A stretch of DNA of 64,000 nucleotides from Bacteroidales bacterium (GTDB lineage: Bacteria > Bacteroidota > Bacteroidia > Bacteroidales > VadinHA17), in NCBI GenBank assembly GCA_034679225.1, contig JAXDBC010000038.1, positions 10,595 to 74,594 on the forward strand. The letters run 5' to 3'. Under the pieces are notes generated by a model. It was not told the DNA's origin, made no database searches, and was given only the letters and a program-made list of their open reading frames with translations. A program made the position numbers and the translations under genes. Each line of letters begins with the position of its first letter. Position 1 is the stretch's first letter. Shown in pieces: positions 25,357 to 51,205 of the stretch.

Positions 25357-25452
25357 GTCTTGCGGTCTGGCACGACCGCACGACTGCACGACCGCAGGAC
25401 CGCACGACCGCAAGACCGCAAGACCGCACGACCGAACGACAGGCGACCGCGG
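25357..25452. repeat. Octamer tandem array (NGACCGCA, about 9 units) preceded by one inverted unit
   Basis: cgaccgca cgactgca cgaccgca ggaccgca cgaccgca agaccgca agaccgca cgaccgaa, led by ggtcttgcggtc. Fills the gap between ppk2 and hisS. Confidence 0.9.
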
Positions 25453-26879: not shown

Positions 26880-26951
26880 ACACTTAACCCTGAATCACTT
26901 ACTCTCGTTGACCCCCTTTTCCTCCCGTCCCGTCCCGATTCCCCTGCATTC

Positions 26952-27091
26952 ACATACCCCCTTTCCCGTTTCCCCCAGGGGGGAAAGGCTTCTTCCAATG
27001 GAAGTTGCTGCTCAATTTGTTATATCAAGCATTGAAGTTCATATTTCTTTCCAATATTAGCAGAATCTTCTTGCTCCTTCACCCTAGGGGG
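26952..27091 (-). repeat. MITE-like 142-bp element, inverted copy (about 85% identity to the 46.4-kb copies)
   Basis: The reverse complement aligns end to end with 46364-46505, including both CCCCCAGGGG-type termini. Confidence 0.7.
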
Positions 27092-27159: not shown

Positions 27160-27217
27160 GCCGCGTGCCGCGTGCCGCCCGCCGCCCGCCGTTCTTTCGC
27201 CCTGTGCCCTACCCCCT
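27160..27217. repeat. Heptamer-periodic tract (GCCGCGT x2, GCCGCCC x2, then GTGCCCT-type units)
   Basis: Period-7 reading directly abutting and overlapping the stop codon of the thiamine pyrophosphokinase gene. Confidence 0.8.
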
Positions 27218-27856
27218 GAATTTCTGATAAACTATAACCGCTCCTTCGTCGAAGCGGATCTCGAATGAATCGCCTGTTGCTTCATTCAGGGTTCCCCGCC
27301 ACCAGTTCATGAGTTTAAGGCCTGAAAGTTCATATCTCAGACCTGAAGAACTGATTTCAGTTTCGGGGTTTACCGAGAACAGTGAAACCTGCTGACCAAC
27401 AAAGGAGTTTAGTGACCTGCTTCCCAGTATCGGGGTGAATATTCCGGTATCGGTTACCATCACGACGCTGACTTCCCTGGCATATTCAGCGAGGAGTGAT
27501 ATGTTGCCGATGGTATGGTCTTCCCTTTTTCCCGTGGCTCCGACAATCACAATATCCATATAACTATTATTAATACACCACCTGACTGCCTTTGTGAGGT
27601 CGTTGGTCTCCTGGTCGGGGTCTCTGAAGAGCCGGCCGGAATATTCCCGGGCAATTTCGCGGTCGATGGAATCAAGGTCGCCCACTATCGCTTCAGCTTC
27701 CAGTCCGGAACCGGCAAGGTTCTTAATACTGCCGTCGCAGCAGATTATATGTTCAGCTTTCCGGAGGTATGCAAGAGGCACCGGATGCATGGGAAAGTTC
27801 CCGTCAGCGAGTATTACAGTTCGCTGGATATCGAAAATGATGTTTTGATACATCAT
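27209..27856 (-). CDS. Thiamine pyrophosphokinase
   Basis: 215 aa, CCDGS and IVGDLDSI motifs, C-terminal thiamine-binding domain. Confidence 0.85.
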   Translation of the reverse strand: MMYQNIIFDIQRTVILADGNFPMHPVPLAYLRKAEHIICCDGSIKNLAGSGLEAEAIVGDLDSIDREIAREYSGRLFRDPDQETNDLTKAVRWCINNSYMDIVIVGATGKREDHTIGNISLLAEYAREVSVVMVTDTGIFTPILGSRSLNSFVGQQVSLFSVNPETEISSSGLRYELSGLKLMNWWRGTLNEATGDSFEIRFDEGAVIVYQKFRG

Positions 27857-36220: not shown

Positions 36221-38014
36221 TTATCTGAAGTGGAAATAATACCAGAAAGTTTTGCCGAACTGTTCCCTCATAAGCGCTTCGAGCCGTGCCGGATTTTGCC
36301 TGGCGCTCATAAAAGCGGCAAAATACTGCTCAAACCTCAATCTCGTCTCACTGCTCAGTTCCAATCCCCCAAGATCGGGAAAAACACCCTGGCTGTTATA
36401 GTATATAAGTATTGCTTCCTCTATGTATTTGGGTATCCTGGTGTATCCCATGTTTTTCATAAGTCGGACGTTGTCGACCAGCATTTCCACATCCTTGTTG
36501 AGCAGAAGCCAGGCCATCATGTATTCGAAGGCTTCCCTGTTGCCGGGATTCTGGTTCACAAGCCTGGGTAAATTGCTTTCAGGCGTTTCCAGGAAGATAA
36601 AGAAGTCCTGACCGGGAAGCAGGTTCATTTTCCTTCCCAGGTTCGGATCCGATTTAACCGCGAGCGGGTCGCCCGCGAGTTTTTCATGATCCATTGCCCA
36701 TTTTCTGTAAAAAAGCGTTTTTTTCAGGATTGAAGCATATTTGGCGGTCATGCTGTAATTGCCGTTGATAAGGCTCGTTTTTACAAGCAGTTTCATGTTC
36801 TGGGGCCTCTTGCCATAAACCACCATCTCCTCGTAGGCCCAACGCTGAGCTTCATTAATCAGTCCGATGGCATAAAAGGCTTGTGCACCCCAGTTGATAT
36901 GCTCACTGCTCCATGGGAGGAACAATGATGAAGTCCTGAAGTCCTGCCTTCCCTGGAACAACCTGTCGCACATCTGTCCGGTCGACGAAAGGGCAATGTT
37001 GTAAAAATACTGTCCTATAAGATTTTCTGAGGGTTTCTTTTCATGGTATTCAACTGCCTCCTGGTATTTCCCGGTGAAAACAAGCTTCTCGAGGTTTATG
37101 ACGCGGGCAGTCTGCGGCTTGAAAGCTGCTGCAAGAGCTGCAACGGCAGTACAAAGAATAATTGCCGGCAGTACAATTGTCGCGGCAAACCGTTCCCGCG
37201 GTCTTACTATCCTTAATCTCCCGGCCAGGCGGGTAATTACCGGATACAGCACAAGGAAGGCTGTCATTAACCGGAACATCAGCCTGTGCAGGCTGTCGTT
37301 TATATCCGGAAGGGGATAAAGGAAACGCTGTTTTATGTCATCGGTAATCAGGAACTTGTCGGATAAGAGCACGCATAATCCTGCCAGGCCTGCAAGCATC
37401 AGCGGCATTAGATACCTGTGGCGTCCTTTCAGGTAAACAAGACTGTAAACAATGAACATCCCGGTGAATATCAGGCCAAAAGCGCCAGCAAGGTAATATA
37501 GGACAGGGAAAAAGGTCAGGGCGATGTACATATCCCCGGTCTTTTCACGGCTTACCACTATAAGGAAGAAGAAAAGAAGCAGTACAAATCCTGCATTGTA
37601 GAGCATCAGGTGATAATAATGAGTCTGCATGATGAGCAGCAGGCAGGATGGAATGATTGCCAGGCCCGATCCCGGCATCAGCCCGCGGTTTATCCCGTGC
37701 ATTATCACAGCCGGTAATGACAGTACCAGGGCCAGGATCAGGGCTCCCGCGAAACTATTAATATAAAATTGGGTAAGGAATTTTGCTATCAGGTCGGCAG
37801 GGGCACCCGGTTTATCAAAAAACTCAAGGATATAGTCAGCTGAATACAGGAACAGCGACTGTTGTTCCTGGAAGAAGAGGACATAATTGCCGGGGATCAG
37901 GAAATAGATAAAGGCAATAAGGAAGAAAGCGGCAAAGAAATACCAGCTCCGGTCAGGGGCCGGTACAGGCACCTGCTTTTTGGGGGTTGTTTTCTTATTA
38001 CGGTTCTTTGTCAT
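36221..38014 (-). CDS. Polytopic membrane protein with soluble C-terminal domain, function unknown
   Basis: Start set to the ATG at 38014 (MTKNRNKK...). About 9-10 hydrophobic helices, then a helical-looking (alpha-rich by eye) C-terminal half. The 101 codons upstream in the track ORF are tandem-repeat read-through. Confidence 0.75.
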   Translation of the reverse strand: MTKNRNKKTTPKKQVPVPAPDRSWYFFAAFFLIAFIYFLIPGNYVLFFQEQQSLFLYSADYILEFFDKPGAPADLIAKFLTQFYINSFAGALILALVLSLPAVIMHGINRGLMPGSGLAIIPSCLLLIMQTHYYHLMLYNAGFVLLLFFFLIVVSREKTGDMYIALTFFPVLYYLAGAFGLIFTGMFIVYSLVYLKGRHRYLMPLMLAGLAGLCVLLSDKFLITDDIKQRFLYPLPDINDSLHRLMFRLMTAFLVLYPVITRLAGRLRIVRPRERFAATIVLPAIILCTAVAALAAAFKPQTARVINLEKLVFTGKYQEAVEYHEKKPSENLIGQYFYNIALSSTGQMCDRLFQGRQDFRTSSLFLPWSSEHINWGAQAFYAIGLINEAQRWAYEEMVVYGKRPQNMKLLVKTSLINGNYSMTAKYASILKKTLFYRKWAMDHEKLAGDPLAVKSDPNLGRKMNLLPGQDFFIFLETPESNLPRLVNQNPGNREAFEYMMAWLLLNKDVEMLVDNVRLMKNMGYTRIPKYIEEAILIYYNSQGVFPDLGGLELSSETRLRFEQYFAAFMSARQNPARLEALMREQFGKTFWYYFHFR

Positions 38015-38015
38015 G

Positions 38016-38135
38016 GTCTTGCAGTCTTGCGGTCTTGCGGTCTTGCAGTCTTGCGGTCTTGCGGTCTTGCAGTCTTGCGGTCTTGCAGTCTTGCGGTCTT
38101 GCAGTCTTGCGGTCTCTTCGTCCCGCAGTCTCTTA
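38016..38135. repeat. Octamer tandem array GTCTTGCR (12 perfect + 3 degenerate units)
   Basis: Begins 2 nt from the ATG at 38012-38014. Reverse-complement family of the array at 25373. Confidence 0.95.
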
Positions 38136-38145
38136 GTTTCACTCT

Positions 38146-38290
38146 GTGCCCTGCGCCCTGTGCCCTGTGCCCTGAGTCCTGTGCCCTGCGCCCTGTGCCC
38201 TGTGCCCTGAGTCCTGTGCTCTGTGCCCTGCGCCCTGTGCCCTGTGCCCTGAGTCCTGTGCTCTGAGCCCTGTGCCCTGAGCCCTGAGCC
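38146..38290. repeat. Heptamer tandem array G[TAC]G[CT]CCT (20 units) with 35/42-nt higher-order periodicity
   Basis: gtgccct gcgccct gtgccct gtgccct gagtcct repeated. The minus (sense) strand reads (AGGGCAC)n, which is G3N4G3N4. Confidence 0.95.
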
Positions 38291-46218: not shown

Positions 46219-46312
46219 GTGCGGTCTTGCAGTCCTGCTTGCCCTGAGCCCTGAGCCCTGAGCCCTGAGCCCTGTGCCCTGTGCCCTGTGCCCTGAGCCC
46301 TGAGCCTTCCTG
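46219..46312. repeat. Mixed array: 2-3 octamer units (GTCTTGCA-like) then about 10 heptamers (GAGCCCT/GTGCCCT)
   Basis: gtgcggtcttgcagtcctgcttgccctgagccctgagccctgagccctgagccctgtgccctgtgccctgtgccctgagccctgagcc. Confidence 0.9.
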
Positions 46313-46363: not shown

Positions 46364-46505
46364 TTCCCCCAGGGGTGAAGGAGCAAGAAGATTCTGCTAA
46401 TATTGGAAAGGAATATAAATTGTAATATTTGATATAACAGATTAAGCAGTAACTTTCATAGGAAGAAGCTTTTCCCCCCTGGGGGAAACGGGAAAGGGGG
46501 TGAGT
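46364..46505 (+). repeat. MITE-like 142-bp element, copy 1
   Basis: Termini TTTCCCCCAGGGGTGAAGG ... CTTTTCCCCCCTGGGGGAAA are inverted repeats. Differs at one position from copy 2. Confidence 0.75.
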
Positions 46506-46616
46506 GACTGCAGGGAGGTAACAAAAAAGAGGGTACGTGAATAAGGGGGTTCTGAGGTCTTTTTGTAATTATTTAATCACCTGTAGTTCCCTGCCGGTTA
46601 TACCCCCTTCCCAACC

Positions 46617-46758
46617 TTCCCCCAGGGGTGAAGGAGCAAGAAGATTCTGCTAATATTGGAAAGGAATACAAATTGTAATATTTGATATAACAGATTAAGC
46701 AGTAACTTTCATAGGAAGAAGCTTTTCCCCCCTGGGGGAAACGGGAAAGGGGGTGAGT
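46617..46758 (+). repeat. MITE-like 142-bp element, copy 2
   Basis: Direct repeat of 46364-46505 at a 253-bp offset. Confidence 0.75.
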
Positions 46759-46883
46759 AAATGCGGGGAGCTCCCGATAGCTATCGGGACGGGATGGAAA
46801 GGGGGTATGTGACTGCAGGGGATAACAGTAAATAGGGTAAATGAATGCAGTGTGAAACAAGAATGCGGGTGAGTGAAAGTAAG

Positions 46884-46988
46884 AGGTTCGAGGTTTAGCG
46901 TTCAGCGCAGAAAGTTGACCTTGCGCCTTGTGACTTGAACCTTGCGGTATTTGCTAATTGTAAATTGCTAATTGCAAATTGCAATTGA
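46884..46988. repeat. Drifting heptad mosaic (15 units; the 7-nt phase is kept while the unit sequence changes)
   Basis: aggttcg aggttta gcgttca gcgcaga aagttga ccttgcg ccttgtg acttgaa ccttgcg gtatttg ctaattg taaattg ctaattg caaattg caattga. Confidence 0.8.
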
Positions 46989-48002: not shown

Positions 48003-48658
48003 TTATGCAGAAATGGATCTCTTCCATACTTTAAGTCCGGCGAACGACATTACAAGGTACACCGCGTAGAGAATAACCGTGGGATAAAGCCCCCGCGTAA
48101 CGAAGATCATCACGGACGCGGCATTTACAGCGATCCAGAGGTACCAGTGTTCATATATCTTTCTTGCAAGCATCCAGGTTGCTATTGCCGACAGTGCTGT
48201 TATGAAGGAATCCCATCCCGGCACAGGTGAATCGGTAAACCTCGACAGGATAAACCAGATACCGGAATACGACAAAATGAACACAGCAGTGAGCACTAAA
48301 CCTGTTAACAATTTTAACCTCGTTACCTGAAGTCCCCCGGACTCCGCGCCCTGTGCCCTGTGCCCTGTGCCCCGTGCCCTGAGCCCTGTGCCCCGTGCCC
48401 CGTGCCCTGTGCCCCGCGCCCTGTGCCCTTCACCCACCAATACCATCCTATGCAGCTCATAGCCAGGTAGTATCCCTGAAGGCTCATATCAGCATAGAAC
48501 TTGCTTGTAAAAAAAACAACAATATAAACGGCGCTGGTTACTATGCCAACCGGCCACAACCATATATTCTGTCTTATCTCGAGAAACACGTAGATTATGC
48601 CGCTTAAGGCTCCGAATATCTCTATCCAGTTTGTTGCTATCCAGACGTTAATGCTCAT
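48003..48658 (-). pseudogene. PnuC-family (PnuT-like, thiamine-regulon) transporter split into two frames by a heptamer array
   Basis: 48323-48658 encodes the N-terminal TMs (...CIGWYWWVKG). 48003-48446 encodes the C-terminal TMs in a different frame. Both frames are open across the 84-nt array. Confidence 0.8.
48346..48429. repeat. Heptamer tandem array (12 units, GTGCCCT/GTGCCCC/GAGCCCT/GCGCCCT) inside the pnuT-like gene
   Basis: Read directly. The sense strand is (AGGGCAC)-type G3N4 repeats. Confidence 0.95.
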
Positions 48659-51086: not shown

Positions 51087-51109
51087 CTCTGTATCAGTTA
51101 AAACTATAT

Positions 51110-51205
51110 ACCGGGTGCATTTGTTCCCTACGCCGGCATTACCCGGATCAGGTGCAAGGGTATGATCTCAGCCCGTAATAATAAGGCACCCCGTAAATGA
51201 CGATG
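51110..51205 (-). promoter_or_regulatory. TPP (THI-box) riboswitch
   Basis: The minus strand reads CAUUUACGGGGUGCC...GGGCUGAGAUCAUACCCUUGCACCUGAUCCGGGUAAUGCCGGCGUAGGGAACAAAUG. It shows the canonical CUGAGA, ACCUGAUC.GG.UAAUGCC.GCGUAGGGAA core and a CAUUU/AAAUG P1, about 25 nt before the ATG at 51086. Confidence 0.9.

Follow-up and report, generated by a model that had tools for sequence, protein, structure and literature searches.

A hypervariable heptanucleotide repeat inside the pnuT gene of uncultured Bacteroidales, almost always in frame, with one OFF allele of uncertain reality

The simple-sequence contingency loci of Haemophilus and Neisseria, with tetra- or pentanucleotide repeats in coding regions, mostly concern surface structures, restriction-modification and iron receptors of host-adapted pathogens. 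Their repeat tracts are perfect, as those of known phase switches usually are, and the genes are frequently OFF. The closest known system to the one analysed here is the heptanucleotide variable-number tandem repeat (VNTR) of neuO in Escherichia coli K1 (CUS-3 prophage), a proven switch with the unit AAGACTC, which is OFF in 65.6% of 64 complete genomes; its unit number ranges from 3 to 53, and variants with n-1 and n+1 units are present within clonal populations (PMC13001214). Here we report on a 12-unit heptanucleotide array that splits pnuT, a PnuC/PnuT-family transporter gene, in a 64,000-nucleotide stretch of DNA from a Bacteroidales bacterium of the VadinHA17 lineage (assembly GCA_034679225.1, contig JAXDBC010000038.1, positions 10,595 to 74,594), referred to below as the window. 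We favour, with a probability of roughly 0.6, the reading that the array is a hypervariable coding VNTR, long resident in the loop between helices 3 and 4 of the transporter and constrained to keep the reading frame, and that the window carries either a recent null allele or a miscounted one.

Two other known systems bear on this locus. In most gut Bacteroidetes, a TPP (thiamine pyrophosphate) riboswitch and the genes for a TonB-dependent receptor and a Pnu-family transporter form one operon (PMC5613172), with the thiamine pyrophosphokinase gene directly after pnuT, and in B. thetaiotaomicron the loss of pnuT alone is harmless when thiamine biosynthesis is intact (PMC5613172). Heptamer repeats with the unit TAACTGA have been described in the Beggiatoaceae, Cyanobacteria and some Bacteroidetes, where they are mostly intergenic, often just upstream of start codons, and present in tens of copies (PMC4679880).

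The split pnuT gene and its array

The gene lies on the minus strand of the window and is made up of the following parts:

48434-48658, minus strand: 5' part of pnuT, 75 codons, encoding helices 1-3 and ending in the conserved GWYWW motif
48345-48428, minus strand: heptanucleotide array of 12 GGGCNCN units, encoding GTGHRAQ-type heptads (Tandem Repeats Finder, TRF, and a manual unit list)
48323-48344, minus strand: out-of-frame tail of the 5' open reading frame (ORF), ending ..RSPGDFR, with the run of five G (G5 run) CCGGGGGAC and the stop codon TAA at 48325-48323
48003-48332, minus strand: 3' part of pnuT, encoding helices 4-7, from LQVTRLK to the stop codon, in the frame starting at 48446

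Both halves were recognized by the same family models. The 111-aa ORF at 48658-48323 matches positions 1-70 of the PF04973 profile (83.4 bits, E 2.5e-23) and the 147-aa ORF at 48446-48003 matches positions 71-175 (103.7 bits, E 1.4e-29; cut-off 27.3 for both), so that the profile is covered completely across the two halves and the split falls exactly at position 70/71. The TIGR01528 PnuC model also scores both halves above its cut-off of 42.45 (N half 52.2 bits, C half 56 bits). Because the halves lie in different frames, the window holds no continuous seven-helix ORF, and the deposited record annotates the gene as two fragments of 111 and 97 aa. Neither half contains a stop codon or an indel, and the unit number is the sole lesion.

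TRF reports the array with a period of 7 (48348-48429, 11.7 copies, 86% matches, score 122) or, alternatively, with a period of 21 (90% matches, score 136). The manual count gives 12 units, or 84 nt, between codon 77 and the 3' half. On the gene strand, units 1 to 6 read GGGCACA, GGGCGCG, GGGCACA, GGGCACG, GGGCACG and GGGCACA, and units 7 to 12 read GGGCTCA, GGGCACG, GGGCACA, GGGCACA, GGGCACA and GGGCGCG. The array is therefore impure: positions 5 and 7 of the unit vary, and the longest perfect run is three units. A pattern of three units matches the window 33 times, whereas shuffled sequence would give 0.01 matches. In support of the original prediction, which was made from the letters of this DNA, the TRF output, the unit list and the two Pfam halves bear out a 12-unit array that splits pnuT.

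From ATG through stop, the gene measures 656 nt. The gain of one unit would give 663 nt (220 aa) and the loss of two would give 642 nt (213 aa), and natural alleles of exactly 220 aa and 213 aa were found. The predicted restoration of the frame by one gained or two lost units is thus correct in its arithmetic, and natural in-frame alleles have between 4 and 28 units. The same prediction drew attention to the fact that both frames are free of stops across the array. This is true but automatic, since all three sense frames of (GGGCACA)n encode one cyclic heptapeptide, GTGHRAQ.

Unit number and reading frame among relatives

An array-free fusion of both halves, used as the query, retrieved about 3,800 homologues. 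The closest of these, with flanks near-identical to those of the window, are 199, 206, 213, 220, 227, 234 and 255 aa long, and members of their clusters add lengths of 241 and 248 aa. Each step of 7 aa corresponds to three units (21 nt), and the loops are runs of GTGHRAQ-like heptads. The intact close relatives have 4, 7, 10 and so on up to 28 units, always 1 mod 3, and thus encode 1-9 heptads; judged from ORF sequence, intact ORFs of this kind are abundant and conserved. The more distant relatives that lack the array are 191-195 aa long.

To follow the frame independently of protein prediction, loci were also retrieved at the DNA level. A frame-blind scan with the C-terminal half, run over one genome for each species, gave 54 loci with both halves, 52 of them in frame, although the loop of one of these 52 (L010) contains a stop. 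The two that are out of frame (L014 and L060) are from metagenome-assembled genomes (MAGs) of the MFD series and have little or no heptamer array. A scan of metagenome contigs with species-specific 27-mers added no more than 6 loci, each of them in frame. Of the 60 loci from the two scans, 19 have four or more heptamer units, and every one of the 19 keeps the frame (P 8.6e-10 against an expectation of one third). Looking up the neighbouring DAHP synthase gene gave five more contigs that span the array; four are in frame, with 4 units in one and 28 units in three, and the fifth (L098) is one unit above the 4-unit allele of L095 and is therefore out of frame. In the frame-blind tally, 23 of the 24 array-bearing loci are in frame and one, L098, is OFF. 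Unit counts in the sister clade are 4, 5, 10, 13, 19, 22 and 28.

The position of the array is conserved across many species, and the sequence and number of its units turn over. The comparison of orthologous pnuT loci, which had been proposed as a check, thus finds the array across the clade and its length hypervariable. Short fragments among the protein hits are almost all genes cut by contig ends inside the array. One further locus, L092 (3.3x coverage), is out of frame by the loss of one base in a G run. For the window, a single-base sequencing error was considered and rejected: the length of its array is exactly divisible by 7, and whole units separate it from the arrays of its neighbours.

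Loop DNA in the 54 species-representative loci ranges from 21 to 354 nt and is made up of hexamers, heptamer arrays with units of several kinds, octamer-like text and translated palindromes resembling repetitive extragenic palindromes (REP). This natural range is the best evidence that the helix 3/4 loop would tolerate insertions, and it agrees with the predicted hydrophilic connector in which extra residues could be accommodated. Note that the loops of L012 (354 nt), L027, L029, L040, L057 and others are filled with other repeat material, in each case without loss of the frame; the fillers seen in other species include translated REP-like palindromes (KLPSLEGLGVG, SPFEGGQGDV), GGGAGAA heptamers, GAGAGT hexamers and octamer-like text encoding RDEETE.

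In the protein, the break falls directly after the conserved GWYWW motif that ends helix 3. AlphaFold modelled the 13-unit in-frame allele P0002 with low confidence (mean predicted local distance difference test score, pLDDT, 52.7). Examined for the 3+1+3 helix architecture of the Pnu family, the model places helices at residues 11-29, 34-51, 58-76, 119-143, 149-191 and 194-219, and residues 77-118, between the third and the fourth of these, form a coil with a block-mean pLDDT of about 30-40. The array loop is accordingly predicted, with low confidence, to be unstructured. It is rich in Arg and His, and by the positive-inside rule and the Pnu topology, the loop should face the cytoplasm. Residues 9-188 of the array-free relative P0075 align to the Neisseria mucosa PnuC structure (PDB 4QTN; E 2.9e-5), and this alignment puts the array position after helix 3 has ended, ahead of the following helix.

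Unit number also differs within the window's own species. An intact 7-unit allele (P0001) is present on 14 contigs from many samples, which are 98.9-99.7% identical to the window, and an intact 19-unit allele on three contigs with 98.3-99.5% identity around pnuT and about 97% further downstream. Alleles of 7, 12 (the window) and 19 units therefore occur at 98.3-99.7% flank identity, and the variability in unit number that had been anticipated is found among near-identical strains. Compared with intact alleles of the same species, the halves of the window gene show 0-1 nonsynonymous and 0-2 synonymous differences per half; against the intact allele P0161, the 5' part is 100% identical in amino acids and the 3' part differs by one. 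Because the halves differ from intact alleles by 0-1 nonsynonymous changes, the frameshift is either very recent or not real.

The most informative relative is L104, a 13-unit in-frame allele on a 1.2-Mb scaffold with 33x coverage. From unit 4 on, its array equals that of the window, except that it has four consecutive GGGCACA units where the window has three. Aligned in this way, the window allele lacks a single GGGCACA by comparison with a 13-unit in-frame allele, and the missing unit falls in the stretch where slippage would be likeliest.

Two further observations concern the surroundings of the gene in related contigs. Three Logan contigs (L001, L003 and L004) have no mismatch to the window over 8,428 nt upstream of pnuT, and carry a sister-clade allele and array from pnuT nucleotide 39 on (pnuT nt 1-285). 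These mosaics represent either allelic recombination inside pnuT or chimeric k=31 contigs; since k=31 contigs can switch strains, they were not relied on as evidence of recombination. L069 (JGI 3300028241, 1480-2037) lacks both the DAHP synthase gene and the spacer, rich in repeats, that separates pnuT from the SusC-like gene (559 nt, compared with 2,031 nt), as a result of either a structural variant or a misjoin.

Taken together, these data are consistent with the following scenario. The array, found across a clade of uncultured Bacteroidales, appears to be old. Its unit number would change fast, by slipped-strand mispairing or by unequal exchange between units, and as 7 cannot be divided by 3, two in three of the changes in unit number destroy the frame. 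Purifying selection for a working transporter would remove the frame-breaking changes, and for this reason the assembled alleles would almost always be 1 mod 3. The 12-unit allele of the window would be a null allele, and a very recent one, since no other lesion is present. ON/OFF switching is an unavoidable by-product of a 7-nt unit, and the data do not show that the switch is maintained because it is adaptive. Rather, the allele counts indicate what looks like a mutation-selection balance with ON strongly favoured: with 23 of 24 loci in frame, compared with about 66% OFF in neuO, the gene would be kept ON by selection, unlike a balanced contingency locus.

The pnuT operon and the intergenic arrays of the window

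Upstream of pnuT, the operon comprises two further features:

51107-51203, minus strand: TPP (THI-box) riboswitch aptamer, 20 nt 5' of the receptor start codon
48663-51086, minus strand: TonB-dependent outer-membrane receptor of 807 aa, first gene of the operon (Pfam)

The riboswitch matches the Rfam model RF00059 over its full length (model positions 1-105; 60.7 bits against a gathering score of 54.3, E 1.9e-9). The receptor has CarboxypepD_reg (CarbopepD_reg_2), Plug and beta-barrel domains (Pfam) and is by context OMthi-like; an identical protein is encoded on 11 other contigs. Its stop codon is 4 nt 5' of the pnuT ATG (48658), and a promoter and terminator scan of the operon gave no signal above the shuffled background, including between the receptor gene and pnuT. 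The locus thus has the arrangement of a PnuT-type operon, with a TPP riboswitch and a TonB-dependent receptor of the thiamine context, and the RF00059, Pfam and TIGR01528 matches agree with the earlier assignment of a PnuC/PnuT-family gene to a TPP-riboswitch operon. From the riboswitch alone, we infer that the substrate of the transporter would be thiamine. A thiamine pyrophosphokinase gene, with TPK catalytic and substrate-binding domains, is located at 27209-27856 on the minus strand, 21 kb from the pnuT operon.

The pnuT array belongs to a larger set of short arrays in the window:

38144-38290, minus strand: intergenic heptamer array of about 21 units in the DUF6057 leader, used as a control (TRF)
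38015-38115, minus strand: octanucleotide array GCAAGACC/GCAAGACT, about 12.6 units, abutting the DUF6057 start codon (TRF)
46241-46306, minus strand: intergenic heptamer array GGGCTCA/GGGCACA, 9 units, upstream of a SusC-like gene (TRF)
25370-25440, plus strand: octanucleotide array GCACGACC, 8.9 units, in the 159-nt ppk2/hisS spacer and on the sense strand of both genes (TRF)
46951-46987: A/T-rich 7/14-nt array TTGCAAA / CTAATTGTTCATTG, upstream of the DAHP synthase gene

All four G-rich arrays outside pnuT are intergenic. The two in front of DUF6057 are leader and not coding sequence because the DUF6057 Pfam profile begins at the ATG at 38008-38010; note that a gene caller would extend this ORF through the arrays to 38317 (698 aa). 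Like the pnuT array, the intergenic ones differ in length between strains. The DUF6057 leader has 20.9 heptamers in the window, 24.9 in L089 and 14.9 in L063; for its octamer part, the lengths in three strains are 129, 105 and 169 nt. The array upstream of the SusC-like gene has 9 units in the window and 6 in L089-L091, and the A/T-rich 14-mer upstream of DAHP synthase occurs in about 3, 4, 5 or 6 copies among strains, with an N10 gap inside the L104 copy. In terms of length, the differences are +28, -42 and -21 nt for the G-rich heptamers, -24, +40 and +8 nt for the octamers, and steps of 14 nt for the A/T-rich array. As read from these alignments, length changes that are not multiples of 3 nt do occur where no frame must be kept. 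The array upstream of the SusC-like gene failed as a wider control, since the sister clade has a different sequence there.

The arrays share an orientation and a predicted structure. All three GGGCNCA arrays have their G-rich strand on the sense side of the adjoining gene, and the octamer arrays are oriented alike to their genes. Each GGGCNCA array fits a G3N4 G-quadruplex motif, while the opposite strand has no GGG tracts, and when G-quadruplexes are allowed the RNA of the pnuT array has a predicted minimum free energy of -43.3 kcal/mol, compared with -33.6 kcal/mol. A search with the heptad peptide matched 132 proteins; of these, 120 were listed, each between 37 and 97 aa in length and without a Pfam domain, and among the matches listed those with a named source are almost all from Bacteroidales MAGs. 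We read these proteins as spurious calls over intergenic arrays. The GGGCNCN repeat would thus be a lineage-wide satellite that is otherwise intergenic; as the search did not list even the PnuT proteins, it cannot show that pnuT is the unique coding carrier.

Other repeats accompany the arrays. Dispersed repeats of about 150-290 nt with REP-like palindromes (CCCCTGGGGGAA..., GGGTTGGGGGTAAAG) are found at 46364-46517, 46617-46905 and 26940-27091, that is, duplicated in the spacer between the SusC-like and DAHP synthase genes and again near 27 kb. This spacer is rearranged between strains, with 1,091 nt in the window and 964 nt in L089.

Competing readings of the 12-unit allele and comparison with known systems

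Several points weigh against a frame-constrained VNTR as we have described it. The other alleles all come from consensus assemblies, which can collapse arrays and hide a minority of OFF cells, so that real switching could be frequent and yet invisible in them. The unit count of the window and the population picture both come from assemblies. The intergenic control is small, and of its three length differences in G-rich heptamer arrays, two correspond to whole multiples of three units. That a non-triplet repeat has persisted so long in coding sequence, and in many species, could mean that the repeat itself is selected, which would favour a contingency locus. Finally, the structure model used to place the loop is of low confidence (mean pLDDT 52.7).

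Within the favoured reading, we give an even chance to the window allele being a real one-unit slippage variant that dominates the sampled population. That it is an assembly artefact, the true allele being in frame and most simply having 13 units with four GGGCACA of which the assembler dropped one, is a serious possibility that falls short of an even chance. In support of an artefact, every k=31 Logan contig of the window strain and of the sister strain ends inside the array, and another array holds the N10 gap in the 1.2-Mb SPAdes scaffold (L104). The split ORFs of the window are absent from all other assemblies searched, and in-frame alleles are the overwhelming rule. In addition, contig L101 (4 samples), which is 100% identical to the window over 1,497 nt, implies a longer run: it opens with ACA, three GGGCACA and GGGCGCG, where the window has ACG, three GGGCACA and GGGCGCG, and its starting 31-mer is what a four-unit GGGCACA run would give. 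This difference could, however, be a single G-to-A substitution. The sequencing runs SRR24058005, SRR24057994 and SRR14932674 contain the window strain at 99.97-100% identity. Other observations speak for the count as deposited. Over 10.3 kb, there are no gaps between the window and a same-species contig, and elsewhere in the window the assembler handled a perfect 4-unit run (46245-46272) and a 147-nt array. If random miscounts were common, most alleles would be out of frame, which is not so; the strong in-frame excess implies that assemblies usually count the units correctly. L098 is a second OFF allele caused by unit count. Moreover, ten variants of the 13- and 10-unit proteins predicted for the window strain by the gain of one or the loss of two units were searched for in a collection of 15 billion proteins, and none was present, which also argues against an in-frame true allele.

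An unlikely alternative is that the heptamer tract is a true contingency locus, kept by selection as a stochastic switch of thiamine uptake, with the window caught in the OFF phase; the avoidance of toxic thiamine analogues or of the cost of the transporter, for example, could be the benefit. Some features of the locus are those expected of such a switch. A non-triplet repeat (12 x 7 nt) lies inside the ORF, it is conserved at the same codon position in many species while its units turn over, and the unit count varies between close, near-identical strains. Two independent alleles, those of the window and L098, are OFF by unit count, and L101 and L102 hint at more than one array variant in one strain background. 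An OFF phase could also be affordable, given the harmless loss of pnuT in B. thetaiotaomicron with intact biosynthesis (PMC5613172). However, the classic behaviour of a contingency locus, which the original prediction had ascribed to the array, is not what the alleles display. ON and OFF are not both common: 23 of the 24 frame-blind alleles are ON and 1 is OFF, against 65.6% OFF in neuO (PMC13001214). A long perfect tract is likewise lacking, since variant units are interspersed along the tract and its perfect runs are no longer than 3-5 units (3 in the window). The array is not special to pnuT either; the same repeats fill intergenic DNA, and a genome-wide mutation process together with a permissive loop suffices to explain it. 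PnuT, moreover, is an inner-membrane protein, neither a surface antigen nor a phage receptor.

Somewhat more improbable still is a related idea, in which the G-rich arrays form a family of functional G-quadruplex elements in gene leaders and the pnuT copy is a true slippage switch, of which L098 and the window would be snapshots. The pnuT tract would in that case be the first simple-sequence switch reported for a vitamin transporter and the first repeat-based contingency locus of the Bacteroidales, an order noted, to our knowledge, for invertible promoters and not for repeat tracts.

It is very improbable that the frameshifted gene is still expressed, whether by a -1 slip of the ribosome on the G5 run or by the assembly of separately translated halves. 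A -1 shift does join the frames, and the G5 run (CCG GGG GAC), which lies just 3' of the array and three codons before the premature stop, allows perfect re-pairing of tRNA-Gly; the array mRNA is, in addition, predicted to form G-quadruplexes. The break falls exactly between the first three-helix bundle and the linker helix, and an ATG at 48446 opens the 3' frame. Split SWEET-type transporters can assemble from separate halves. However, every in-frame allele likewise has the G5 run and the ATG, the latter a by-product of Gly-Trp codons, and neither is thus a special adaptation; a canonical X XXY YYZ slippery site is lacking, and internal initiation inside a translated ORF is usually weak. Working split or shifted genes would also not leave out-of-frame alleles so rare. 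A ribosomal slip, the assembly of halves and an effect of an RNA G-quadruplex are thus minor alternatives without specific support.

The remaining alternative raised with the original prediction, a fixed pseudogene in which pnuT is long dead in the lineage and the array is debris, finds its support in the split annotation of the deposited record (111-aa and 97-aa) and can be excluded, as neither half has a stop or an indel, both are within 0-1 nonsynonymous differences of working same-species alleles, and sister strains at 98-99.5% identity carry intact 7- and 19-unit alleles.

On the favoured reading, then, a coding microsatellite whose unit is not a triplet sits under frame constraint in the loop of a transporter; it stems from a repeat family spread over the genome, and its OFF allele in the window may or may not be real. 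Should the 12-unit allele be genuine, the vitamin B1 uptake gene of an abundant digester and wastewater Bacteroidales can be switched by the slippage of a single unit; the cells of a single strain would then not scavenge thiamine alike, a point of relevance to cross-feeding in the community. Even if it is an artefact, a non-triplet microsatellite has persisted in a transporter loop across a whole clade under strict frame selection, and the clade offers a natural series of PnuT proteins with 1-9 heptads between the halves of the fold, in which the linker tolerance of Pnu/SWEET-type transporters can be tested. Equally independent of the allele is the finding that these genomes carry a large family of 7/8-nt arrays beside start codons, all prone to form G-quadruplexes and oriented by strand. 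Such arrays systematically defeat gene callers and assemblers, leaving broken contigs, spurious ORFs of 40-100 aa and split genes, and the annotation of MAGs should allow for such errors.

Finally, we compared the locus with the known systems. As occurs in neuO, a 7-nt unit lies inside an ORF, full-length protein follows a mod-3 rule, in-frame alleles encode a variable number of heptads, and the range of units is wide (4-28 in pnuT). Unlike the neuO tract, which is at the 5' end of its gene, the pnuT tract is in mid-gene, in the loop between the transporter halves; it is a mosaic of variant units, it is ON in 23 of 24 loci, and its unit is common to many intergenic arrays of the same genome. 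With the contingency loci of Haemophilus and Neisseria, it shares a non-triplet tandem repeat in an ORF, where slipped-strand mispairing would shift the frame reversibly, but it differs from them in affecting a vitamin transporter, in occurring in a Bacteroidales bacterium of anaerobic digesters or wastewater, in its impure tract and in its strong ON bias.

The operon resembles the OMthi/PnuT system of B. thetaiotaomicron, with a TPP riboswitch, a TonB-dependent outer-membrane receptor and an inner-membrane Pnu transporter. In contrast to the window gene, the pnuT of that species, judged from deletion coordinates, encodes about 186 aa and has no repeat (PMC5613172), and, in contrast to the gut operons, the kinase gene of the window is outside the operon, 21 kb away. 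The Neisseria mucosa PnuC, a nicotinamide riboside transporter (PDB 4QTN), belongs to the same family but has low sequence identity and no repeat loop. The intergenic arrays recall the TAACTGA and the cyanobacterial STRR repeats, which form many short arrays of one heptamer per genome; the arrays of the window, too, sit upstream of genes, and one octamer array abuts an ATG. Unlike the TAACTGA repeats, the arrays of the window have a G-rich GGGCNCA unit of the G-quadruplex type, are paired with an octamer array, and are linked to a frame-constrained coding copy, a link that the abstract of the TAACTGA study does not describe (PMC4679880).

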